Program-made: the position numbers and the translations under genes
In this document: piece by piece, positions 3,031-22,220 of the stretch
Position numbering within the stretch: the stretch's first letter is position 1
How the letters are laid out: each line of letters begins with the position of its first letter
From: Candidatus Heimdallarchaeota archaeon
GTDB lineage: Archaea > Asgardarchaeota > Heimdallarchaeia > Heimdallarchaeales > Heimdallarchaeaceae
Reading direction: 5' to 3'
DNA length: 22,220 nucleotides
NCBI GenBank assembly: GCA_016840095.1
Contig: JAEOSZ010000043.1
Coordinates: 1 to 22,220 of the forward strand
Notes under the pieces: generated by a model
Told to the model about the DNA's origin: nothing
Databases searched by the model: none
The model's input: the letters and a program-made list of their open reading frames with translations, nothing else

Positions 3031-3783
3031 ATGTCAGATGCAATATTAAAAATGGATAAAGTGACCAAAATCTACAAACAAGGAAGATCTGAAATTGTTA
3101 GAGCTCTAGATAAAGTAAGTCTTGAAATTAATCAAGGTGAAATACTTATGGTTGTTGGACCTAGTGGAAGTGGAAAAACAACTATGCTCAATTGCCTATC
3201 TGGTCTTGATAAACCAACAAGTGGAAAGATACTCTTTAACACAGCAAGAGCTGGTGAAGGATTCAAATATATGGCAGAAAAAGACGAAGAGACTCCTAGA
3301 AGATCAATGTCAAACATGGTGGATTTAACAGCATGGGATCAGAAACAGCTCACAGCATATCGACGACACAATGTCGGTTTTGTCTTTCAAGCTTGGGAAC
3401 TTATCCCTACTCTAAAAGCTATAGAAAATGTGGAATCAAGCCTTTACACTTCTAGAATACCAACACCTGAGATTAGAGAAAAAGCTAAAAGACTACTAAG
3501 AAAAGTAGGATTACTAGACAAAGAATTCTCTTACCCTGACCAGTTAAGTGGGGGCGAACAACAAAGAGTTGCAATTTGTAGAGCACTGATAAAAGAGCCT
3601 AGAATTGTTTTTGCTGACGAACCAACAGGCAATCTTGATAGTGAATCTGGTGAGCAAATAATGAGACAAATGAAATTAATTTCTAGAGAAGGAGCAGCAG
3701 TAATTATAGCAACTCACAATAGTGAATTAAGGAAATTTGCTGACAGAATGGTTAAAATTCACGATGGAGAAATAACATATTAG
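3031..3783 (+). CDS. ABC ATP-binding protein, LolD/MacB/FtsE-like, with an internal insertion
   Basis: Walker [10 protein letters not shown]-loop GFVFQ, signature LSGGEQQR, Walker B/D-loop [11 protein letters not shown]-loop ATHN; GGTGA RBS upstream. Confidence 0.95.
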
Positions 3784-3788
3784 GAGGA

Positions 3789-5411
3789 ATGAAATTGGCA
3801 AACGAAATTTTCATGGATTTAATTTCTTCAGAATTTTCTGGAGATGAAGCAGACAAAGTTGAATATTCATCTCTTGTAGGCTATGCATTAGATAGTATTA
3901 AACGCAAAGAAAACCTTGAAGCAATTTACAAGTGTTATGTACCGTTTTACGCATTGAAAGTAAATGAAGGGAACTATATTGTCGTAAATGCTCTTAGAAC
4001 AGATAAAAGTAAGTTGACTGTAAGTAAAGTACCTACTGTTGCTGATATCAAACCTGTTCTAAATGAAGATTATTCTTCTTTGGAAAATCTATACAAAGCA
4101 ATCGAATCAAATTTGATTTCGAAAAGTGTTCATACAGTTGAAATGAGTGGAGCCTTAGTGAAGAAATCTGTTGAAGGAATGGCTAAAATGATTGCTCATC
4201 ATAATTCTTCCAGAGATTCAAAATTTAAGAAATTAACACCTCTAGTAAATCGAGAAGATGTAAAGAGAGATGTTGCAACTATAAGTAAATTCGCAATCAC
4301 AGATCATGAACTTGAAACAGAGCTAAACATACTCTTTGATGAAATCGAGAAGTTTCTCAAGGAAAAAATTGTTGAAAAGAAGAGAAATAAAAGCCAAACA
4401 GAAGAAGAATATAGTAGAAAAATGGAAGAAACCAAGAGAGAAGGAGAAAGAAGAATCAAAGAGATTGAGGAAGAAGAGAAAACAGAAAAAAGGAAAATTG
4501 ATGACCAAGCAGATAAGGAAAGAAGAGAGCAGCTTGTTTCTGTTAGAGATAGCAAAAGATGGAACCAAATGAAGAAGGATATTTCTGCATTAGAGGAAAC
4601 CTATGCTAAATTACTCTCAAGTACAGATCAACTAAGCTCTGGTGATCAGTTCGATGTTATATTAACTCGAATTAGAGCCGTTCAAGATGAAACTCAAGCT
4701 TTTGGAACTGGTTTAAATACTGCTGTTTCTGAAATTGAATTTAGACAGAATGAATATGAGGATATTCGTCATCAAGCTGATGTAGATAAAAGGAATGTAT
4801 CTGATAGAATGAATACCATGAAAGAAGATATTCGAAGACAGTATGTTGATTTAGAACTAGAAAAGAATCGAGAAGTTCAGTTGAGAGAAGATGACATTCA
4901 ACTCGCTCAGGATATAAGTGTAAGATTTAATTCAAATCGACAAAACTTGATGAAAAAAATCAAGAATAATTATATTATGTTTTCAGCATATTCTCTTTCA
5001 TCCGAATTACTAGGTGCAACTCATTCAGATCAGTTGATAACATTGAATGTTCCTGTAGCAATTTGCCAATATAAAGAAAGAACTAAACTAGACTATCTTG
5101 TTATTCCTCCAATTGAGATTTCGGAAAGAATGAAAAAGCCAAGATTATTGCCTGTTCACGGACTATATGGCAGAATAGGATTTGATTGTATTGCGAGCGA
5201 AGCTCTTTCGTTTCTTAAAAAACCTCTAGAGAACCTTTTATCTTCAAACCAAGGACTTCAAGCGGAAATTCAAGGAGATAATAACGAAGTTATTGGAACA
5301 GGAGATTTATCTCTTTTAAATGCAGGATTAACCATTTTAGAACAGCGAAAGAAATTACCTAAAAAATATTCAGATGAGATTGTAGCTCGATCGAGAACAA
5401 TTCTCTCTTAA
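3789..5411 (+). CDS. Uncharacterised cytoplasmic protein with a long central coiled coil flanked by globular domains
   Basis: 540-aa ORF 5 nt after the ATPase stop; E/K/R-rich helical region at about aa 170-390; no signal peptide or TM segment. GGAGG spacing favours TTG at 3795 as an alternative start. Confidence 0.85.
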   Translation: MKLANEIFMDLISSEFSGDEADKVEYSSLVGYALDSIKRKENLEAIYKCYVPFYALKVNEGNYIVVNALRTDKSKLTVSKVPTVADIKPVLNEDYSSLENLYKAIESNLISKSVHTVEMSGALVKKSVEGMAKMIAHHNSSRDSKFKKLTPLVNREDVKRDVATISKFAITDHELETELNILFDEIEKFLKEKIVEKKRNKSQTEEEYSRKMEETKREGERRIKEIEEEEKTEKRKIDDQADKERREQLVSVRDSKRWNQMKKDISALEETYAKLLSSTDQLSSGDQFDVILTRIRAVQDETQAFGTGLNTAVSEIEFRQNEYEDIRHQADVDKRNVSDRMNTMKEDIRRQYVDLELEKNREVQLREDDIQLAQDISVRFNSNRQNLMKKIKNNYIMFSAYSLSSELLGATHSDQLITLNVPVAICQYKERTKLDYLVIPPIEISERMKKPRLLPVHGLYGRIGFDCIASEALSFLKKPLENLLSSNQGLQAEIQGDNNEVIGTGDLSLLNAGLTILEQRKKLPKKYSDEIVARSRTILS

Positions 5412-5419
5412 TCCTTTCT

Positions 5420-8400
5420 TTATTGTTTTTCATCAGGTATTGCTGTAGGGTATTCTGATAACCTGAATAAAGCTTCTTTTATTGTTTCAGATAGATCGAT
5501 GATATTGGTATCTCCATTTTCGATAAGATACGAGATAACTGATTTCATTCCTTCAAGAACTGGACCTGTATTCTCATCAAATTTCATTCGTGCAACAAAA
5601 CCTACAATATCACTCATGACTATTAAACGATCACGATATTCATCCATATATTTGTTATAATTAGGTTCTAAGTACAACCTGACTTCCCAATCCTTTGGAT
5701 GGCTTACTACTGATACATTTGGAAACTTGAGAACATTAAGAACATCTGCCTTAGTTGCGTATATTTCTTTAGGTAAAGCTCCTAAAACAATATAATAGCC
5801 GTTAATATCACTTGACAATTCTAGATCATTTTTAACAAATAAAGTGCTTGTTAATCGTCCATAAGTATTGATCATTTTTGTGAATGTGTTCCCTAAAACT
5901 CTCATATTAAGGTAAAGGTTATTCTCAAATTCCTTTCGAGATCTACTTTTACTCCAAGCTCTTAGAACAGAATCTGCTACTTTCCTTTCTCCACTTATCA
6001 TCTGATTATATGAATCGTCAATAACATACTCAGGGATTCTGTGATATAGTAATATCGAGATAGCTATTTCCATGAAGTTCTTTGGTAATTCTGCAATTTC
6101 TTTTGGATTAAGTCGATTTACTGTTTCAATTATCTCTCTCAGACTTTGCTGTTCAGATATTGTGAATCTTCCATATTCAAGTTTCTGTATCTTAAAAACA
6201 TCTCCAACCCATTTGGGAGCGTTTCTACCTACTTCTGATAAATGAGATGACAAGTCTACACTTACATCCTTTGACCAGCTTTCAACCATCTTTGTCATCT
6301 GATCATTTAATGGATTCCAGTTCTTGATAAGCATCCTTTTTATATACTTCAAATCCTTTAGGGATTTACTATAAAGCCTCATTGCTTTCTTCTTATAATT
6401 TAAGTCATTTTTTCTTAATTTCGAAAAGCCGGAGAGAAGCTCTTGTAGGTTTTTGTGAATTTTCGGAGCATGAATATTCCAGCTTTCCTGACATCTCTCG
6501 TGGAAATTCTTTCCTTTGAATCTTTGGGGAATATCCTGAATTACTGGAAACGATGGAAAGCTGTTTTGTATATCTGGTAATCTCTGAGCTGGAGTAAGAT
6601 TCCCAGACATCTCTCTATTAAAAATAGTAATTAGAGTGTCTAATTGGCTGTAAACTTCTCCTTCAAAATGAAACATCTTTTGAAGATATGAACTTATCAT
6701 TCCTCTGAGAATAGCTTTAGAATATGCTCTTTTGAGAATTTTTGTATTTATCAAACAACTAGTTAAAAATTCTGCATCAGCTTCTGCATCTCTGAGAGGT
6801 ATGATGTTATTTGAGAGATTAACAGCAACGTTTTGTTTTTGTAACAATTCAGTAGACGAAATATTTCTACCATCAAAACGTAATTTTGTTCCTTTAAAGA
6901 ACGATTTCTTCAATTGAACAGGGACTGAATCAACATATGCCTTTACTTCTCCTTCATCTATAGCTGAAGCTATGAGGTCTCTTGAACCTAAACTCATTTG
7001 TTTTTTTGTTTCATAATCCCTATCTTTTAGATCCTCTGCGGTTTTCGATAGGATATTAACAAAAACTGTCTGAGGAGCAATTTTTCTAAATGAATTGACC
7101 ATGAAAGAGAATATATCTCCTAAACTTGCATTAAATAACTGATCTTTTACAATCTTTTCAAGTGTTGTAATAATTGCTCTTTCTAATGCACTTGCAAAAA
7201 GAACTGATTCTTCAATATTTGAAAGTTGAAGTTGTTTTCCAACACCCATTTTTGTAAATCTCTCTGTTAACTGCTTTTGCCACTTTGGTTGTAAAACTGT
7301 CAATTTAGAAAGACGATCTTTTAGTATATTTCTCTTAAACTGGATTGAGGTTTCACTAGAAGATTCTGCTTTCTTTTTTGAAGACATTTTCCTCTCATCT
7401 ATTATTGAAAAAGTGAAATCGACTATAGCATTCCAAATACTAGGTGGTAGTTTCTTACCAATGAAAGGTTTGATGAGTTCACTATAGAACAATCTAGCAC
7501 TTTGCAATGCTAGTGGAGTAACATCATCAATTAATGCATCACATACCATAGAACCTGGATCTGGAACTTCGGTTGCTATGCTTATCTGATTTTGAATTGA
7601 AGAGTATAGATTTACATCTCTAAAATCGATTAAAGAGAAGAGTGGATCATCTTTGGCAACACTGTAAATTACTTCTTTTGCTAAGTTGTGTGCAATAAAA
7701 GAACTTGCAGAATGAATTTCATCAATAGATAGTTTCTTCAGTTCTGATGTAACTTTTTTACCCATCTTCTTGGAGAGATATTTGTCAATAAGCTCTTGAG
7801 GTTTAACATCTTTAGCTTTGAGACTTTTTTCTATAGTATTTCGAATTTCTTCAATTGCAAATCTTGGTCTTTCATATTCAATAAGTACAAAAGGATCGTC
7901 TGTAATGATTTGGTTTAAGATATCTTGTGCTACCATTTGAACTAGAAGCTGACGCTTGAATGGTATCATAGCACCCTTTTCCCATGAGTGTTCATCCTCT
8001 CCAAGCCAAGCTTTCAAATCTTTGAGTTGTGCTATTGTTGGAAACTTTATTGGATCGGTTTCAAGAATTTTAACATTTTTAGTAATTAATTCGACCAATC
8101 CTTTATTGCTAGTTGATACAGAAACTTTCTGTTTCGCTATTGTGCAAGCTTTGAGAAAAGCTTTTGAGACATAGTCTGGGGAAATCATCTTTCCTGAAGC
8201 CATGTTCTGATGAAAATTGGGAGTTAAAACGATAAACCTACAGAAGGATAAAGCTAACTCCTGAACAAGTTGTTCGTCAGTTTTACTAAGTTTTCCTGCT
8301 TGGTCTGATTTTAACACATATTGAACTACAACATTATCTGCTTCTTCAGCCAGGGTGAATGTGCCAAATTTAACATATTCGTTTTCACCGGTCATAAATT

Positions 8401-8572
8401 GGGAGTTGGTTACTTCCACTTCTGTAGTCATTAATGTTTGTAGGGATAATAGAATACCTTGCATCATACTAGAATCTTTAGCAAGGCTTCCAATAGTTGC
8501 AAAACTAATTCCTGCATCGCTTCCAGCTGAAATCCATAAATTATAGGGAAAATGTTTAGACATAGACCTCAC
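5420..8572 (-). CDS. Large hypothetical protein with a putative N-terminal longin-like domain and a largely alpha-helical body
   Basis: 1050-aa uninterrupted ORF (GTG at 8572, or ATG at 8563). The N-terminal pattern resembles beta-beta-alpha-beta-beta-beta-alpha. The CDS is secure; the domain call is an inference. Confidence 0.8.
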   Translation of the reverse strand: MRSMSKHFPYNLWISAGSDAGISFATIGSLAKDSSMMQGILLSLQTLMTTEVEVTNSQFMTGENEYVKFGTFTLAEEADNVVVQYVLKSDQAGKLSKTDEQLVQELALSFCRFIVLTPNFHQNMASGKMISPDYVSKAFLKACTIAKQKVSVSTSNKGLVELITKNVKILETDPIKFPTIAQLKDLKAWLGEDEHSWEKGAMIPFKRQLLVQMVAQDILNQIITDDPFVLIEYERPRFAIEEIRNTIEKSLKAKDVKPQELIDKYLSKKMGKKVTSELKKLSIDEIHSASSFIAHNLAKEVIYSVAKDDPLFSLIDFRDVNLYSSIQNQISIATEVPDPGSMVCDALIDDVTPLALQSARLFYSELIKPFIGKKLPPSIWNAIVDFTFSIIDERKMSSKKKAESSSETSIQFKRNILKDRLSKLTVLQPKWQKQLTERFTKMGVGKQLQLSNIEESVLFASALERAIITTLEKIVKDQLFNASLGDIFSFMVNSFRKIAPQTVFVNILSKTAEDLKDRDYETKKQMSLGSRDLIASAIDEGEVKAYVDSVPVQLKKSFFKGTKLRFDGRNISSTELLQKQNVAVNLSNNIIPLRDAEADAEFLTSCLINTKILKRAYSKAILRGMISSYLQKMFHFEGEVYSQLDTLITIFNREMSGNLTPAQRLPDIQNSFPSFPVIQDIPQRFKGKNFHERCQESWNIHAPKIHKNLQELLSGFSKLRKNDLNYKKKAMRLYSKSLKDLKYIKRMLIKNWNPLNDQMTKMVESWSKDVSVDLSSHLSEVGRNAPKWVGDVFKIQKLEYGRFTISEQQSLREIIETVNRLNPKEIAELPKNFMEIAISILLYHRIPEYVIDDSYNQMISGERKVADSVLRAWSKSRSRKEFENNLYLNMRVLGNTFTKMINTYGRLTSTLFVKNDLELSSDINGYYIVLGALPKEIYATKADVLNVLKFPNVSVVSHPKDWEVRLYLEPNYNKYMDEYRDRLIVMSDIVGFVARMKFDENTGPVLEGMKSVISYLIENGDTNIIDLSETIKEALFRLSEYPTAIPDEKQ

Positions 8573-15543: not shown

Positions 15544-16404
15544 GTGAAAAAGAACAAACTAATCAGTTTAACATTAATCCTTGCATTTTTAGCAGTTCCA
15601 TTCGCAATTCATCAATCTAGTCCTGTGACAGGAGTTTTTGAATTTACAAATGTATGGGATTACCAAGGAATTCTCAACAGGCAAAATCACCGTATTAGAT
15701 ACATACCTCCCTTTGGTCTCGATAATTATCGTAGAAGGACATTTATCTTCTGTTTAGATTCAGTAGATGACGAAGTAAAAGAAATAAATATAATGGTAGC
15801 TATGCATGGAATAAATGCATTACGTAATGCTCCTCTCTATTCATTGTTCTTTGAAGAGTCAAGTCTTGGAGGAAAATATGGTTTCAATGTAAGTGCTGAA
15901 GCAGGAATGAGTTGGTACGATGTATATTGGTATTCAGATATAATAAACGCTAGTACAGTTTCTTATGATCCTGCAATAGCAGATATTTATGATGTTGTTG
16001 TAAGTTCTACCCAGTATACATTACCAGAATTGTACGATCCTTCAGATCATCTAATCTTCCCAGTTCATATAGCCAATTTTGTTTCACAAACTGGAGTAGT
16101 TGGTCATTGGCAGCAAATCAATAAAGATCAAACTGTTATAAATGGAAATTTCACTACTTTTGGACCCGACAATCCTATCTTTACTGGTCCAGTTAATGCA
16201 ACTGATCCTACAAATTATGCGTACCCTGAAGAAGATTGGTGGCCACAATTTAACATAACTGTTGCACAAAATGTTCAGAGAACTTCATTGCCTCGAACTC
16301 ACAGTTTTCAAGTTGATTTTCCATTCACTGCATTAATAGCTTCTTTTGCACTAGCTATAATGATATTTACCTCTGCTCGAAGAAATAGGAGGAAATTAAT
16401 ATGA
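15544..16404 (+). CDS. Secreted, C-terminally membrane-anchored putative surface glycoprotein (paralog 1)
   Basis: Signal peptide MKKNKLISLTLILAFLAVPFA; five N-x-S/T sequons; C-terminal FPF + hydrophobic helix + RRNRRK tail. Confidence 0.85.
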   Translation: MKKNKLISLTLILAFLAVPFAIHQSSPVTGVFEFTNVWDYQGILNRQNHRIRYIPPFGLDNYRRRTFIFCLDSVDDEVKEINIMVAMHGINALRNAPLYSLFFEESSLGGKYGFNVSAEAGMSWYDVYWYSDIINASTVSYDPAIADIYDVVVSSTQYTLPELYDPSDHLIFPVHIANFVSQTGVVGHWQQINKDQTVINGNFTTFGPDNPIFTGPVNATDPTNYAYPEEDWWPQFNITVAQNVQRTSLPRTHSFQVDFPFTALIASFALAIMIFTSARRNRRKLI

Positions 16405-17165
16405 AAAAGATATCTCTCGCTATATTAACATTAATGGTAACATCACTATTTGTTATTTCATATAATCTTTCAATAGGTGTTTCAGCTCAAGAAGATGAAG
16501 AAGTATGGGATTTCACTGGTACAATGCGAATTAGTAGTGATCAAGTTAGACGTCTGGTTTATGATCCTGTTGCAGATGGATATAATGAATCATATGGAGA
16601 TTATGACACACCAGCACTATATATGGATATCATGGGATTTGATACAGATGATGATTTAGAAATGGATGTCTATTACGGATTCTATGGTGTTAATCTCTTC
16701 GATTTAGATCATCTCAATTATACAACTATGAATAATTTATTCAGAGTTGTTGTATTTTCTCAATGGAGTTTAAGAATTCCTGAAAGCTCTCCATTAAAAT
16801 GGGAAGTTCTCTATTATCCTGATCCATTTTATGATGATTTAGCTATCAATCTAATTCATGACATACCAATCTATTATGTAAATCTAACAAAAGCTGAAGG
16901 GGTTAATCTTCAGTTCAAATATCAGTTAGGATTAAATTATACAATTGGAAACTTTACAACTTTTGGTGCATCCAATCCAATAGTACCAGATGAGCCAACT
17001 TTTCCGGATTACAATGTTTCAGTTCCAGTGTTTACTGACAACCAACCAATTCCTGAACTTGTAGCAACACCATTCTTCTCTGATCCACTAGCTTACTTAA
17101 CAATTATAACTTTAAGTTTCCTCTTTGGTATATACGTGAAGAAACGAAGAAAGGGAACGAGATAG
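16401..17165 (+). CDS. Secreted, C-terminally membrane-anchored putative surface glycoprotein (paralog 2)
   Basis: Signal peptide ending near VSA-Q; six sequons in the mature part; C-terminal TPFF + hydrophobic helix + KKRRK tail; ATGA overlap with the upstream gene and a GGAGG RBS. Confidence 0.85.
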   Translation: MKKISLAILTLMVTSLFVISYNLSIGVSAQEDEEVWDFTGTMRISSDQVRRLVYDPVADGYNESYGDYDTPALYMDIMGFDTDDDLEMDVYYGFYGVNLFDLDHLNYTTMNNLFRVVVFSQWSLRIPESSPLKWEVLYYPDPFYDDLAINLIHDIPIYYVNLTKAEGVNLQFKYQLGLNYTIGNFTTFGASNPIVPDEPTFPDYNVSVPVFTDNQPIPELVATPFFSDPLAYLTIITLSFLFGIYVKKRRKGTR

Positions 17166-17186
17166 AACACTCTATTTTTGATTCCC

Positions 17187-17211
17187 AAACCTTTTTATCT
17201 TTCTTTTTATT
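17187..17211 (+). promoter_or_regulatory. T-rich intergenic element: candidate TATA box for the nuo-like cluster and/or terminator for the surface-protein pair
   Basis: AAACCTTTTTATCT about 30 nt before ATG 17230, sharing the CCTTTTTAT core seen upstream of iorA; further T-runs are adjacent. Confidence 0.4.
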
Positions 17212-17229
17212 ACATCTAAATGTATTGAG

Positions 17230-17910
17230 ATGATTGAATTATCTTACTTAACTTCTATACTGTTAATCTCAATTTTTAGTTTAATTATTGCTATTTTAAT
17301 TGTTATTCCAAATTTCATCAAGATTAAGCAATACTTCTGGTTAAGTACAAAAATTACTCTTGTTTTAGTATTTGCAATTTTAGTTATTTTGTTTGTAAAA
17401 GTAAAAACTGATGCTTATTATTTTCTGGGAAGTTTCATAGGTGTTGGTCTAATTATTAAAGGAATACTAATTTCAAATCGTATGAGTTTTGTTGCTTTTC
17501 TAGCAAGCTTCATTTCATTTTCTTTTGTGTTCCTTTCTATAGGACATATCATCTTTTTCGTTTTTAGTTTGTGTTTTTCATATCTATTTATTATAGGAAT
17601 AACTGTATTCAGTTTGTATGATTCGAAAACTGATAAAGGTTTCAAGGAGACAGGTAATAAATTCCAGACTATTAGCTTCGCTACTTTACTAGCTTTTCCT
17701 ATAATTACAGTTTATATTCTTTATCTCCTATCTGAAAACCAAGTAATCTGGGTAGAGAAAACATCATTCTTTTCACTCTTTTATAATAATTATGATGCAA
17801 TTACTTTCATTATTATTGGAACTATATTTTTACTTATTGTGACTATATTATTTGTTCTCGGATTTCGATCTCACGACAAAAGAGGAGTTGACGAACTATG
17901 GTATTCATGA
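17230..17910 (+). CDS. Polytopic membrane protein, divergent NuoJ/ND6-like with two extra N-terminal TM helices
   Basis: From about aa 62 it aligns by eye with NuoJ (VFLSIG vs VFFSLG; final LFYNNY + TM vs LFGPY + TM). It lies immediately before K-, L- and N-like genes. Confidence 0.55.
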   Translation: MIELSYLTSILLISIFSLIIAILIVIPNFIKIKQYFWLSTKITLVLVFAILVILFVKVKTDAYYFLGSFIGVGLIIKGILISNRMSFVAFLASFISFSFVFLSIGHIIFFVFSLCFSYLFIIGITVFSLYDSKTDKGFKETGNKFQTISFATLLAFPIITVYILYLLSENQVIWVEKTSFFSLFYNNYDAITFIIIGTIFLLIVTILFVLGFRSHDKRGVDELWYS

Positions 17911-18179
17911 GTTATTTGATAGCATTAAGTCTCATTTGTTTCTGTTTAGGTTTGTTACTCATAATGTTTGCAAAATCTAAACTTCAATTGTCCATGAGTT
18001 TTCTCTTTCTCTTTCTTTCAGGTATTCTTCTTGTTTCAGGTTCTATATTGACTTCTGATACTGTTATTTTCTTACTACTAGGATTAGTAGCAGCAACAAT
18101 CATTATGGTATTCCACTTCAGAGATCATTTACTATCAGAAGCTACAGTAAAAATTGTTAGGGAGGATGAAATTGAATAA
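17898..18179 (+). CDS. Small 3-TM protein, divergent NuoK/ND4L-like
   Basis: 93 aa with three hydrophobic segments; LSLICFCLGLLLI resembles NuoK LAAILFVLGLTGL; located between J-like and L-like genes; lacks both conserved Glu. Confidence 0.6.
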   Translation: MVFMSYLIALSLICFCLGLLLIMFAKSKLQLSMSFLFLFLSGILLVSGSILTSDTVIFLLLGLVAATIIMVFHFRDHLLSEATVKIVREDEIE

Positions 18180-20103
18180 CATCATCATATTGCTTATTGC
18201 TCAAATCTTAGTTTCAATCTCTCTTCCACTCTTCAGACGTTTCCTGTTATTCGTAGACAATGAATCTATTAATCTCAAAAGGTTATATTCGAGCCTAGTA
18301 TCTTCAATACTTATCGTCATTTCATTTATAGTTCTTGCATTAACTATTACTCACCTAAATACAACTGGTAATCCAGAACTATCTGAACAGTTTACATTAT
18401 TCTCTATCTCGAGTTTCAACTTCTCTGTTGGTTTACAACTATCGCAGATACAGATTTTACTTTATGCTTCATTCCTTACAGCTTTAGCTTTAATAAACTT
18501 CTACTTGTCTTGGAATAAAGAAATTTGGACTATCAATCAAGTTGATAGAATAGCGATTTATTCAGCTGTATTAATACTCGTGATACTTTCTCCAAATTTC
18601 TTTCAGTTATTATTCTTTCTGATACTTCTTGACTTAATTCTAATCGAGCTTTTATCATCTTTTGAACAGAGAAATCTGAAGACAATGAATGGTTCAATTG
18701 TATTTGGTGATTTATTGATTCTTGTTTCTTCAATTCTTCTTTTCAGAAGATCTCATAGTTTTGATTTCGATACTATTCTTAGTGATATCCAGTTCAAATT
18801 TTTCATCTACAAACCTTATTTTATAATTCTCTGTTGCTTATTCTTACTAGGGATTATTGCACGAAGTTCACTGTTTCCATTTCACAGCTGGTTATCAAAA
18901 GTTAGTTCAGAAGAATCTGTCTGGAAGTTCAATATTATTATGATTAACATTGTTGTAGGTATATCATTTATTTTCATTTCACCTATATCTAAATTGCTTA
19001 TAGTTGTCCCTAATTATTTTGTATGGTATGGTGTGCTTTTCTCAGTAATTGCTACAATTGTGGGAATATTAACAACAAAAGATAAGGATAAACAGATACT
19101 GATTTTTACAGCTTCAATCGGTTTGCTACTTATATTACTAGGTGTAGGTAATTTAGCAAGTGCCTTTCAAATCTTATTACTGATGCCTGTTGCATTTCTA
19201 GGTTTAATGATTATTTCATCAAAATCAACAACTGACGATGAGATTCCTAGTTCTGAACATAAAGGTAAAATAATAATCAAACTAACAATCGATATTTTAA
19301 TTTTTACAATAGTGGGAATCACAATAATCTCAGTTATTCCATTTAGTAGTAATTTACTTAACATTGGTTATCTCTTCACAACAACCATCATAAATTCAAG
19401 TATAGCTGTTTACGTCATTGTAATCGTTTCTTTACTAGGTATTTACTTGATTTATATGCAATTTAGTAGAAGATATTTTGAACAAAGCTTACATAGAATA
19501 TTAAGAATCTCTGAAATTATACCTCTCACTTTAATTGTGGTATTCTTATCCCTAAATTGCATTCTTTATCCTATTTTTGATTTACTAAATCCATTTTCCT
19601 TACCTGTAGATTTTGTACAAGAGAGTTTACCTATTGCACTTATCCCGATATTCATAGGATGGTTTGTTATTCTTGTTTCTTATATTGTAATAGAATTATT
19701 CATTAAGAAAGTTTCAAAAAGTCTCGATCAATTCTCTGAAAAAATCCAAGAACCACTTCAAAGAATTTACAATCTTGAATTTATAATTACTCCAATATAT
19801 TGGATTAGAGATAAAGTTCTTACACCTTCCATTATTTGGTTTTATGAATATTGCATCAGAGATTTCTTTTACAAGATTATCATTTTAGGAATTGCTAGAT
19901 TCTTCGTTTTAGTATCAAAATCTATAAGAGATTATATCAAGAATGTTGCAGCCCCTCAAACTATTAATTTCTTTAAGAAGTGTTCTCTTTTTGTTCGAAG
20001 TCTAGAAAAAGCTAAACTGAGGACTCAATTATTATTCATTATATTAGGTCTAGGAATACTGCTTGCTTTAGTGATAGGTCTATATGCTGGAGGTGCAATC
20101 TAA
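18154..20103 (+). CDS. nuoL: NuoL/ND5/MrpA-like antiporter-fold membrane subunit, divergent
   Basis: FGD motif (TM6), GIIARSSLFPFHSWL (TM7 broken-helix motif), SIGLLLILLGVG, and a C-terminal amphipathic helix + RSLEKAKLRTQL + final TM. The true start is probably ATG 18166 or TTG 18172. Confidence 0.8.
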   Translation: MLGRMKLNNIIILLIAQILVSISLPLFRRFLLFVDNESINLKRLYSSLVSSILIVISFIVLALTITHLNTTGNPELSEQFTLFSISSFNFSVGLQLSQIQILLYASFLTALALINFYLSWNKEIWTINQVDRIAIYSAVLILVILSPNFFQLLFFLILLDLILIELLSSFEQRNLKTMNGSIVFGDLLILVSSILLFRRSHSFDFDTILSDIQFKFFIYKPYFIILCCLFLLGIIARSSLFPFHSWLSKVSSEESVWKFNIIMINIVVGISFIFISPISKLLIVVPNYFVWYGVLFSVIATIVGILTTKDKDKQILIFTASIGLLLILLGVGNLASAFQILLLMPVAFLGLMIISSKSTTDDEIPSSEHKGKIIIKLTIDILIFTIVGITIISVIPFSSNLLNIGYLFTTTIINSSIAVYVIVIVSLLGIYLIYMQFSRRYFEQSLHRILRISEIIPLTLIVVFLSLNCILYPIFDLLNPFSLPVDFVQESLPIALIPIFIGWFVILVSYIVIELFIKKVSKSLDQFSEKIQEPLQRIYNLEFIITPIYWIRDKVLTPSIIWFYEYCIRDFFYKIIILGIARFFVLVSKSIRDYIKNVAAPQTINFFKKCSLFVRSLEKAKLRTQLLFIILGLGILLALVIGLYAGGAI

Positions 20104-21599
20104 TGGGTTATCCAGCTTTCTTTCTTTATAGCTATTTGCCACTAGAAATTCTACTAATAGGAATCATATTACTTTTACTCTTAGGGGCATTGTCTCCTAA
20201 AATAGTTTCGAGATTTAAAAAACTAAGAACAAGAATGAGAATCATCTCTGGTTATATTACTCTTATTTCGTGCATAATCTCTGTAGTAATGTATAGTTAT
20301 ATCTACTCTCCTCTTGGGAGTAATCATAGTATAGCTCTAAATTTGAACATAACAGCTTATACTACAGGATTATATTATGCAATAGCTTTTGCTGTAATCA
20401 TAGGTACATTTCTATCTATAGTTGAAGTAGATTTGAAGTTCAGGAAGAACCATGTGCTATATGTTTCTCTTCTACTCATTAATGTGAGTACTTTCTTTAT
20501 TACCTCCGCAAAATCATTGGTTTTCATTTTCTTTGGTTTTGTAATAATGTTTTCAAGTATTAATTTCTTCATTAGAAATTTCACCGCTGATTTGCCAAGA
20601 AAACAAAAATCGTTTATTAGAAATTATTTAATGATAAGCAGTTTAGCTTTATCATTTCTATTTGTAGGTTTTTCAGCTCATTCTCTTTCTGGGAATGAAT
20701 TTCTATTATCTATTGATAACACAACTCTGCAGTTTTGGGAGTATTTGAGTGAGATCTTCATAGTAACTGGGTTGTTAATCCTTATTGGAGGTCCTCCATT
20801 CCACTTCACCTTTTTCGAATCAGAAGATGTAAAGTTCAATAGTATCACACAAATCATCATTTCTGTTCAGAAAGGTTTGGCTCTAGCTTTCTTGACTAGA
20901 TACACTGTAACAATTGCTGCTTCACCATTATCAAGTGTTCTGATTTGGTTATATACTGTGTGTGGTTCTGTTTATGTTATCTGGGGAGTTTTTGCTGCAA
21001 TGACAGAAGAAAGATTACAAAAATTAATTCATTATATTAGTATAATCTTTTCAGGAATAATCTTAGTAATTCTGTCTGATTTGTTTTCAACAGTATTAAC
21101 AGAAGAAGTAATTAATTTGACTTTGAGAACTGTATCTTATGGTATTCTGATATTCATCTTAACAATATCACTTTCCATTTCTTCAGTTGGTGCAATTTCA
21201 AAGAGTTTTCAGTCTGATAGCATAGAGGTTTTGAGAGAAGTAAGTAGATATTCCCTCTCGCAATTCATATTTTTACTATTGAACGCACTTGTTTTATTTG
21301 CTGGACCTTTGTCAATACTGATAGTATCAGAGAAGATTACTTTTCCTGAATACTTGTGTCCAAGAATGATTACAACAACTATAATTCTTCTTGTTGGAGC
21401 TGTATTTTCATTGATATATCTGTATAGATTATTAAAACATATTTTCTTCATTCCCCTTCAGATGAAATTTGAGTTTTCATCACCTGAACCAGGAGTTTTC
21501 TTAGCTTCATTCATTGCTTTTGTTCTAACAATTATTGTTATAATTTTCTTTAAGCAATTCTTAATCTTCTGCAGTTTGATTGGATTAAATATAGCATAA
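20103..21599 (+). CDS. nuoN: NuoN/ND2/MrpD-like antiporter-fold membrane subunit, divergent
   Basis: LPLEILL N-terminus, NYLMISSLALSFLFVG, GGPPFHF, SVQKGLA, AAMTEERLQKLIHY, YLYRLLKHIFF; about 14 TM helices; TAATG coupling to the L-like gene. Confidence 0.8.
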   Translation: MGYPAFFLYSYLPLEILLIGIILLLLLGALSPKIVSRFKKLRTRMRIISGYITLISCIISVVMYSYIYSPLGSNHSIALNLNITAYTTGLYYAIAFAVIIGTFLSIVEVDLKFRKNHVLYVSLLLINVSTFFITSAKSLVFIFFGFVIMFSSINFFIRNFTADLPRKQKSFIRNYLMISSLALSFLFVGFSAHSLSGNEFLLSIDNTTLQFWEYLSEIFIVTGLLILIGGPPFHFTFFESEDVKFNSITQIIISVQKGLALAFLTRYTVTIAASPLSSVLIWLYTVCGSVYVIWGVFAAMTEERLQKLIHYISIIFSGIILVILSDLFSTVLTEEVINLTLRTVSYGILIFILTISLSISSVGAISKSFQSDSIEVLREVSRYSLSQFIFLLLNALVLFAGPLSILIVSEKITFPEYLCPRMITTTIILLVGAVFSLIYLYRLLKHIFFIPLQMKFEFSSPEPGVFLASFIAFVLTIIVIIFFKQFLIFCSLIGLNIA

Positions 21600-21654: not shown

Positions 21655-22220
21655 GTGACTTCTAAAAAGCTTGATCTTCCTATTGAAGTTGATCAAATTA
21701 ACACTTACTTATCAGACTTAAGGAATCACAGTCCTTATGATGATGATATTAATGATTTAATTGATCATATCCTTCAAAATGGAGGGAAAAGAATTAGACC
21801 TCTGATATGTCTTCTTTCATTTGAAATGATTTCAAACGAGGAAAGAAACGATTCAAGTCTTGCTGCCGCTTGTTCTTTAGAAGTTATTCACAATGCTTCT
21901 CTTCTCATCGATGATATTTTTGACAAAGATGTTTATAGAAGACAACAGAAATCATTTTATCTAAAGTATTCAACTTTTGCAGCTCTTTCTCTTTCATATT
22001 CTCTGAGTAGTTTAGCACTAAGTTTAGCATCTAAAACACATGTGATTGAAATAGTTGACGAATTAATAAAAGCAATTCACACTCTATCTACTTCTTTATA
22101 CTTAGAACAAAAATTCCGTTCCGGAAAGAAGAAAATGACCAAAGATGAAGCTTTGCAACTTATCGATAGAAAGACTTCAAGCTTATTTGAAGCAGCTTCT
22201 GTTATTGGTTTACTTCTTGG
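21655..22220 (+). CDS. Trans-polyprenyl diphosphate synthase family protein (3'-truncated by the window), probably long-chain type
   Basis: Not in the ORF track. Manual translation from GTG 21655 gives MTSKKLDL...GGKRIRP...LEVIHNASLLIDDIFDKDVYRR...RKTSSLFEAAS, containing GGKRxRP, the first DDxxD motif and the KT motif. Confidence 0.9.
   Translation, partial: MTSKKLDLPIEVDQINTYLSDLRNHSPYDDDINDLIDHILQNGGKRIRPLICLLSFEMISNEERNDSSLAAACSLEVIHNASLLIDDIFDKDVYRRQQKSFYLKYSTFAALSLSYSLSSLALSLASKTHVIEIVDELIKAIHTLSTSLYLEQKFRSGKKKMTKDEALQLIDRKTSSLFEAASVIGLLL

Follow-up and report, generated by a model that had tools for sequence, protein, structure and literature searches.

A divergent complex I membrane-arm module in Heimdallarchaeaceae, most likely a repurposed relic of a respiratory nuo operon

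The window analysed here, the whole 22,220-nucleotide (nt) stretch at positions 1 to 22,220 of contig JAEOSZ010000043.1 (assembly GCA_016840095.1, Candidatus Heimdallarchaeota archaeon, family Heimdallarchaeaceae), carries six co-directional genes on the plus strand at 15544-21599. Four of them, J', K', L' and N', encode a membrane module ordered like part of the membrane arm of complex I (NDH-1), and the two upstream genes, S1 and S2, encode surface glycoproteins. The module and its immediate surroundings are laid out as follows, in window coordinates.

15544-16404, plus strand: S1, 286 aa; signal peptide, ectodomain of about 230 aa with N-glycosylation sequons, C-terminal transmembrane (TM) helix and basic tail; paralogue of S2.
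16401-17165, plus strand: S2, 254 aa; architecture as S1, with the Asp-rich motif GxDTDxDxExDxYYGFYG and an invariant NLT sequon.
17166-17229, plus strand: spacer between S2 and J', 64 nt, T-rich, with three T5 tracts and a TTTTTATTA box about 20 nt 5' of the J' ATG.
17230-17910, plus strand: J', 226 aa; about 6-7 TM helices; occupies the NuoJ position.
17898-18179, plus strand: K', 93 aa; probable three-TM NuoK/ND4L derivative without both membrane glutamates.
18166-20103, plus strand: L', 645 aa (649 aa from an alternative TTG start at 18154, from which L' residues are numbered throughout); NuoL/ND5-type antiporter-like subunit.
19786-20097, plus strand: lateral amphipathic helix of L' (residues 545-619) and terminal TM16 (622-648), from DSSP assignment of an AlphaFold2 (AF2) model.
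20103-21599, plus strand: N', 498 aa; NuoN/ND2-type antiporter-like subunit, with K257 at 20871-20873 and K411 at 21333-21335.
21655-22218, plus strand: 5' part of a polyprenyl diphosphate synthase (PPS) gene, short-chain GGPP/IdsA-like; a positional marker common to the canonical nuo operons of sister families.

An earlier note, made from the sequence alone, had described J', K', L' and N' as four intact, overlapping membrane open reading frames (ORFs) without adjacent NuoA, B, C, D, H or I or hydrogenase genes. The ORF map and Pfam searches agree on both counts: the ORFs overlap successively by 13, 14-26 and 1 nt, and no NuoA/B/C/D/H/I or hydrogenase gene was found in the window. The PPS gene begins 55 nt 3' of N'; 5' of S1, on the opposite strand, lie two MsbA-like ABC exporters, then IorAB and a DUF211 gene. 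The T-rich spacer between S2 and J' may act as an internal terminator or promoter, a role suggested by its letters, and a comparable spacer of 50-70 nt is present in relatives according to gene tables and ORF maps.

Homology of the membrane subunits to complex I emerges from family profiles and from fold, and for two of the four, L' and N', it lies far above chance. Pfam gave no match for J', K', L', N', S1 or S2, the four membrane proteins staying unmatched even at E <= 1, and NCBIfam gave weak end-to-end matches far under the cut-offs, to NuoL for L' (E 9e-6) and to NuoN for N' (E 1.6e-6). The L' family profile matched cyanobacterial NdhF (6hum_F, E 4.5e-11) and Mycobacterium smegmatis NuoL (E 7e-6) in the Protein Data Bank (PDB), and canonical NuoL-like proteins at E 1e-10 to 1e-3 among 1.84 billion representative proteins; two L' relatives carry a weak precomputed PF00361 match. 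The AF2 model of L' (predicted local distance difference test, pLDDT, 82.5; predicted template modelling score, pTM, 0.78) displays a beta-hairpin, broken TM7 and TM12, a 75-residue lateral helix and TM16, and the 50 best matches listed in a Foldseek search of the PDB are NuoL/ND5/NdhF chains, aligned over about 625-740 columns with TM-scores of 0.59-0.70 and E values down to 4.5e-15. For N', the significant profile matches in the PDB are NdhB/ND2/NuoN chains (best E 8.9e-10), and one family member, P0019, scores 42 bits, enough for the Pfam PF00361 threshold. K', with three hydrophobic segments in 93 aa, aligns with canonical NuoK over TM1-2 (hhalign probability 64%, E 6e-5), the register holding from residue 1 onwards. 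When 19 candidate proteins were scored with the K' profile, three NuoK proteins alone gave a score (19, 12 and 10 bits, with G054_K at 19), and in the PDB the profile yields only sub-threshold NuoK/ND4L rows. L' and N' demonstrably derive from NuoL and NuoN, and K' probably derives from NuoK.

J' resists such alignment. Comparison with NuoJ by hhalign, in local and relaxed modes, gave a probability of 1.7% and nothing significant, the J' profile found no match in the PDB, Pfam or NCBIfam, and all J' homologues are labelled 'hypothetical protein'. The family shares the motif FLSIG(Q/H), with H106 in the window protein. A docking prediction of J' against N' and K' scored 0.57, against 0.06 for the best of three controls, which is weak support: of 80 solved complexes 58 attain the docking mark, as do 2 of 110 mismatched pairs, and passes at 0.60 or below comprise only 7 of the 80 solved complexes plus both passing mismatches. 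At least 68% of contacts are common to the runs, partner pLDDT is at least 63, and the pass may reflect a memory of complex I structures. The J-K-L-N identity first proposed for the four ORFs accordingly holds for L' and N' by profile or fold and probably for K' by profile, with J' placed by position only, and the proposed replacement of the NuoJ motif YAGA by SYLF could not be confirmed because J' has no significant profile similarity to NuoJ.

Residues of the charged axis were mapped by alignment to the closest canonical orthologues, and the conservation counts refer to 28 relatives of L' and 20 of N'. In N', the TM5 motif GFE has become GFV147, a site occupied by Val, Leu or Ile in 20/20 relatives, and the TM7 Lys is L227, with Gln, Leu, Asn, Val or Phe across the family. 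The TM8 Lys is retained as K257, aligned to the canonical GSK Lys, and is Lys in 8/20 and Arg in 12/20 relatives, while K411, in the motif VSEK, aligns with the canonical TM12 Lys and is Lys in just 7/20. K' carries L36 in place of the TM2 Glu, and its TM3 core is free of acids in the window protein and in most relatives, with D/E54 at the helix start only. These mappings bear out what had been read by eye for N' (TM5 Glu to Val, TM7 Lys to Leu, TM8 Lys kept, TM12 Lys possible) and for K' (no membrane Glu).

Losses in L' are extensive and accompanied by a distinct set of conserved polar residues. The TM5 WE motif has become LI157, the TM8 His and the TM12 SKD motif are lost, and of the TM11 motif H...HxxFK the second His and the Lys are gone, so that only the first position survives, as Q339 here and as Gln or His across the family. 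The TM7 Lys is R237 in the window (18862-18864). These losses and the TM7 Arg had been called before, the TM11 loss as a change of HAFFK to MPVAF, and comparison with close canonical orthologues substantiates them. The family counts add that the TM7 residue is Lys in 26/28 relatives and that position 160 (D160, 18631-18633), three residues past the lost TM5 Glu, is Asp or Glu in 28/28. H244 is conserved in 23/28 relatives, and conservation also covers the prolines where TM7 and TM12 break; the conserved polar set comprises N148, Q151, D160, R237, H244 and Q339. The term 'disarmed', which the earlier note had applied to the whole module, is largely right: it fits the E-channel, the first half-channel of N' and the second half-channel of L', most of the axis being lost; it is overstated for L', which keeps an acid/Lys/His/Gln set, and for the central base of N', which is kept as Lys or Arg.

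The module is a feature of one family and varies within it. Besides the window's own genome, 30 genomes of the Heimdallarchaeaceae (family f1 below) were covered, and 26 of these have N', against 0/16 genomes of the three other families of the order; weaker N' matches elsewhere in the phylum (E 1e-14 to 1e-5) are read as canonical NuoN-like proteins. The L' family comprises only about 17 clusters at E <= 1e-10 among the 1.84 billion representative proteins. The one named relative is 'Candidatus Heimdallarchaeota archaeon AB_125', and the module genes are annotated 'hypothetical protein' in public records. Genera g3 and g4 carry J', K', L' and N' without S1 and S2. In genus g2 an additional M'-like gene of 495 aa separates L' from N' (G011, L053:5031-6518, plus strand); a Glu in an 'LE' motif of M' possibly corresponds to that of TM5, and the L' and N' profiles do not match M'. 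Genus g5, represented by closed genomes, encodes S1, an enlarged S2, J', K', a 151-aa L'-tail protein and N'. In the g5 genome G016 the 151-aa protein (L056:6081-6536, plus strand) matches only the L' lateral helix and TM16, S2 reaches 449 aa (3746-5095, plus strand), and no L' body was found anywhere in the genome. The constant parts across genera are J', K', N' and the strap of L' formed by the lateral helix and TM16, and we read such variable content as fitting a scaffold better than a pump of fixed stoichiometry.

S1 and S2 belong to the module cluster in the genus of the window. The two are paralogous, with cross-matches to the S2 profile at E 1e-7 to 1e-13, and share a signal peptide, a sequon-rich ectodomain of about 200-230 aa, a C-terminal TM helix and a basic tail. 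S1, without a Pfam or NCBIfam match, is kept in genera g1, g2 and g5 and absent from g3 and g4, and its ratio of nonsynonymous to synonymous substitution (dN/dS, omega) is 0.12-0.28. The Asp-rich motif of S2 lies at 16620-16680 (residues ~74-93) and contains invariant Asp residues, a pattern that we take to resemble the calcium-binding DxDxD motifs of surface proteins; the sequon N161-L162-T163 is likewise invariant. The AF2 model of S2 has a beta-rich ectodomain and a pLDDT of 66.7. At this pLDDT, fold searches gave no usable match in the ESM Atlas (TM-score <= 0.31) or among PDB representatives, where the best Z, 7.0, came from the terminal helices alone; the result is uninformative on fold novelty. 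An Atlas feature search gave no match for S2 either.

Selection on these genes was assessed between relatives at 60-85% identity. The module membrane genes show omega of 0.05-0.26, and all six genes including S1 and S2 show 0.05-0.28, values that are approximate because dS (0.7-3.5) lies near or above saturation; dN is 0.09-0.28. In the same genome pairs the ABC, IorB, DUF211 and PPS genes have omega of 0.02-0.07 and dN of 0.02-0.09, so that the module genes change 3-5 times faster than the genes beside them. From one genus to another, L' and N' retain 22-29% identity, compared with 64-65% for the adjoining ABC exporter. No stop or frameshift was found in about 20 loci examined across five genera, and within g1 the gene lengths vary by just a few residues. 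The pattern is one of purifying but relaxed selection, not decay.

This bears directly on the possibility that the module is in decay, its genes being functionless remnants on the way to becoming pseudogenes, a reading that draws on the loss of most functional residues, on very fast divergence (21-32% identity in the most distant comparison made, with metagenome contig L007) and on the varying subunit content. Undisrupted orthologues in five genera, near-constant lengths in g1, omega of 0.05-0.26, the retention of N' across most of the family and the persistence of conserved motifs largely refute it, and we hold it to be very improbable. The earlier suggestion that the module is repurposed rather than decaying is upheld by the same observations.

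Two side observations concern the neighbourhood of the cluster. Two large ORFs of the window, 1050 aa at 5420-8572 (minus strand) and 540 aa at 3789-5411 (plus strand), have no Pfam match and marginal NCBIfam matches. A close relative carries a 649-aa ORF (L008:3252-5201, minus strand) with a weak match to the Cas12f1-like TNB (TnpB-type) family, inserted between the ABC exporter and S1; this ORF is absent from the window.

A search of the genome for a canonical nuo arm, proposed as a check on the module, located one on contig C108, in the order nuoH-A-J-K-L-N, adjoining hypE/hypF and with a NuoD-like gene 18 kb upstream. Pfam matches every one of the six arm genes, H, K, L and N strongly (E 1e-22 to 1e-67), and the alignment shows the charges of the L subunit. 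The genome has a single NuoH, in this hydrogenase cluster, and each of three other f1 genomes checked has one NuoH. The same assembly, with contamination estimated at 7.8%, has one further PF00420 (NuoK/MnhC-like) match, at the extreme end of a short contig (G000:C158:8-259, minus strand). Because C108 holds a canonical arm of its own, the divergent module is a second, separate set. Complex-I-like group 4 [NiFe]-hydrogenases with shortened membrane arms have been described from Heimdallarchaeia (Appler et al., bioRxiv 10.1101/2024.07.04.601786). That arm, which comes from the same organisms and also has only L and N as antiporter-like subunits, corresponds to the C108 cluster; it is canonical (Pfam E 1e-54 to 1e-59) and hyp-linked, with the NuoD-like gene on its contig, whereas the module is separate and far more divergent. 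No mention of the module was found in Appler et al. (bioRxiv 10.1101/2024.07.04.601786), and our literature search found no paper describing it.

The C108 cluster raises the possibility that the module is an alternative or accessory arm, uncoupled or differently coupled, docking to an energy-converting module encoded elsewhere, for example the group-4 hydrogenase Q-module with NuoH or an Hdr/Mvh-type complex. The catalytic and membrane genes of the genome's complex-I-like hydrogenase are split over about 18 kb, so that assembly in trans is normal in this genome, and L' retains the full lateral helix. The hydrogenase cluster, however, has a complete H-A-J-K-L-N set of its own, each f1 genome checked encodes a single NuoH, and the module lacks NuoH and NuoA and has no E-channel acids found in K' to receive a coupling signal (J' being unalignable), all of which makes such docking improbable. 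The functional options listed in the earlier note, an uncoupled anchor, a scaffold or a transporter for another solute, are not told apart by this analysis, except that the 'alternative arm' among them is weakened by the missing NuoH and NuoA, by K', in which no E-channel acids were found (J' being unalignable), and by the hydrogenase linkage of the sole NuoH.

The origin of the module is indicated by its position. In the sister family f4, genome G054 carries nuoH-J-K-L-[235-aa TM-ectodomain-TM protein]-M-N on one strand, followed by the orthologous PPS gene, and in a second f4 genus (G046) N is likewise followed by PPS, in the order seen in the window. In family f3, genome G041 has PPS directly 5' of nuoH-J-K-L-M-N. 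The N' profile scores 95 bits (G041) and 64 bits against the PPS-linked NuoN of f3 and f4, 29 and 19 bits against their NuoM, and 2.7 bits against the hydrogenase-linked NuoN of its own genome; the L' profile scores 58 bits against the G041 L subunit versus -6 bits against the NuoL of its own genome. Profile scores together with common position and order argue that the module descended in place from a respiratory-type arm and lost NuoH and, in most cases, NuoM.

Two candidates suggested by this neighbourhood were rejected. PPS was considered as a functional partner of the module, but it is a generic short-chain IdsA/GGPP-like enzyme that also adjoins the canonical nuo operons of sister families, and it is retained as a positional marker instead. 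The 235-aa protein of the canonical G054 operon nuoH-J-K-L-x-M-N (L096:9213-9920, minus strand) shares the architecture of S1 and S2, its sequon-rich ectodomain being flanked by a TM helix at either terminus, and has no Pfam match; as an ancestor of S1 and S2 it was rejected, having no sequence similarity to them.

The distribution of heme-copper oxidase subunit I (COX1) is the reverse of that of N': COX1 was found in 13 of 15 f3 and f4 genomes, and in none of 31 f1 genomes (two of them closed) or of the single f2 genome, a contrast that counts as one evolutionary event and not as independent replicates. A maximum-likelihood (ML) tree of L-, M- and N-type proteins gave no reliable placement for the clades of L' and N', whose stems measure 1.4-1.7 substitutions per site; the tree is uninformative owing to these long branches, so that orthology rests on synteny and profile scores. 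The module is most likely a repurposed relic of a respiratory arm.

Comparison with complex I makes the extent of the change explicit. The module keeps the order J-K-L-(M)-N of the arm (NuoJ/K/L/M/N, equivalent to ND6/ND4L/ND5/ND4/ND2), the full NuoL fold in L', a NuoN/ND2-type N', a probable three-TM NuoK derivative in K' and the genomic position of the canonical nuo operon of sister families. It differs in that the locus lacks NuoH, NuoA and the Q-module, the window proteins fall under Pfam thresholds, J' cannot be aligned to NuoJ, and two surface glycoproteins are gained in some genera. Both NuoK glutamates, the TM5 Glu and TM7 Lys of N', and the TM5 Glu, TM8 His, TM11 Lys and TM12 Lys of L' have been lost.

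Other systems built on the same folds offer partial parallels. The cyanobacterial NDH-1MS complex (NdhD3/F3-CupA/S) and DabAB likewise recruit the PF00361 fold to a non-respiratory task with lineage-specific partners. Those partners are cytoplasmic carbonic-anhydrase-like proteins, and the membrane subunits keep their charged residues; S1 and S2, in contrast, are extracytoplasmic, have no assigned fold and are not universal in the family. The Mrp (Mnh/Pha) antiporter is, like the module, a stand-alone membrane complex of NuoL-, NuoN- and NuoK-like subunits without a redox module. Mrp retains the Glu/Lys axis and requires MrpB/E/F/G. At the module most axis residues are gone and no MrpB/E/F/G-like gene was found adjoining it, the flanks consisting of the two glycoproteins, the ABC exporters and PPS.

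The Mrp parallel, in which stand-alone NuoL/NuoN/NuoK-like sets function as antiporters, supports the strongest rival explanation, that of an active stand-alone secondary transporter relying on relocated residues, whether it exchanges cations for protons in the manner of Mrp or serves as a uniporter for some other ion or solute. Candidate residues would be L' N148/Q151/D160/K237/H244, N' K/R257, K' D/E54 and J' D61/K77/Q106. The family-invariant L' acid is a single helical turn away from where the canonical TM5 Glu would stand, conservation extends to Lys237, His244 and the prolines that break TM7 and TM12, and purifying selection acts on all subunits. Set against these features, the second half-channel has gone from L' (TM8 His, TM11 Lys, TM12 Lys) and the first from N' (TM5 Glu, TM7 Lys), the missing MrpB/E/F/G-like neighbours count against an Mrp-type assembly, and the genes evolve several times faster than their neighbours. 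Arginine, a poor proton carrier, occupies the central site of N' in most relatives and the TM7 site of L' in the window, and genus g5 has discarded the whole L' body, holder of the best remaining charge set. A transporter is accordingly judged unlikely, while retaining a real share of the probability.

The module probably serves something other than redox-driven pumping. From the homology, fold, residue losses, selection, synteny and distribution described above, we infer its assembly, its lack of pumping and its present role as follows. The cluster would be an in-place, fast-evolved descendant of a respiratory-type nuoH-J-K-L-M-N membrane-arm operon, whose J', K', N' and L' would stand side by side as in complex I, strapped together by the L' lateral helix and TM16. 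Because the NuoH/NuoA interface is missing and K' has no acid chain (J' being unalignable), a redox module cannot drive the arm by the canonical route, and with that route absent the module would work as a stand-alone membrane complex. The remaining buried residues (L' N148, Q151, D/E160, K(R)237, H244 and Q/H339; N' K/R257) would provide at most one short ion or proton path, or might alternatively form an inter-subunit salt bridge at the N'/L' interface. In the genus of the window, the module would anchor S1 and S2 at the cell surface. On balance, we favour by a modest degree a repurposed, mainly structural or platform membrane complex, with at most residual single-site ion movement and not multi-site pumping.

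Several observations weigh against this platform interpretation or qualify it. The conserved L' acid 160, Lys 237, His244 and the TM7/TM12 break prolines are not obviously needed by a pure scaffold, so that the module may retain some transport or conformational activity. Anchoring of S1 and S2 is not a universal role, two genera lacking both proteins. J' is not demonstrably NuoJ, its assignment resting on gene position upstream of K' and the weak docking score; the ML tree did not group L' or N' with the PPS-linked orthologues; and saturation of dS makes the omega values approximate. A more speculative idea, to which we would assign little probability, sees in the module a new machine on the chassis of a complex I arm instead of a passive relic: ion flow through the single remaining L'/N' path, passed on by the lateral helix, may drive conformational work on S1/S2 or the envelope, as a stator-like transducer, or the complex may handle lipids or polyprenyl-linked glycans at its subunit interfaces.

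Compared with the earlier note, the conserved L' acid 160, the TM7 Lys of 26/28 relatives, S1 and S2, the evolutionary origin and the variable subunit content are additions; new as well are the positional orthologues in sister families and the contrast in oxidase content. The annotation of these 'hypothetical proteins' in public records is corrected thereby. The repurposed arm constitutes a natural experiment in which the arm fold, the lateral strap and the broken helices were kept under selection while the redox input and most of the charged axis were removed, and a structure or transport assay would reveal what the chassis is capable of without the canonical proton pathway. For Heimdallarchaeia, which are closely related to eukaryotes, it also provides an evolutionary marker that can be dated: sister families bearing a heme-copper oxidase keep the canonical nuo arm at this locus, while the Heimdallarchaeaceae, in which no such oxidase was found, carry a degenerate version of it.

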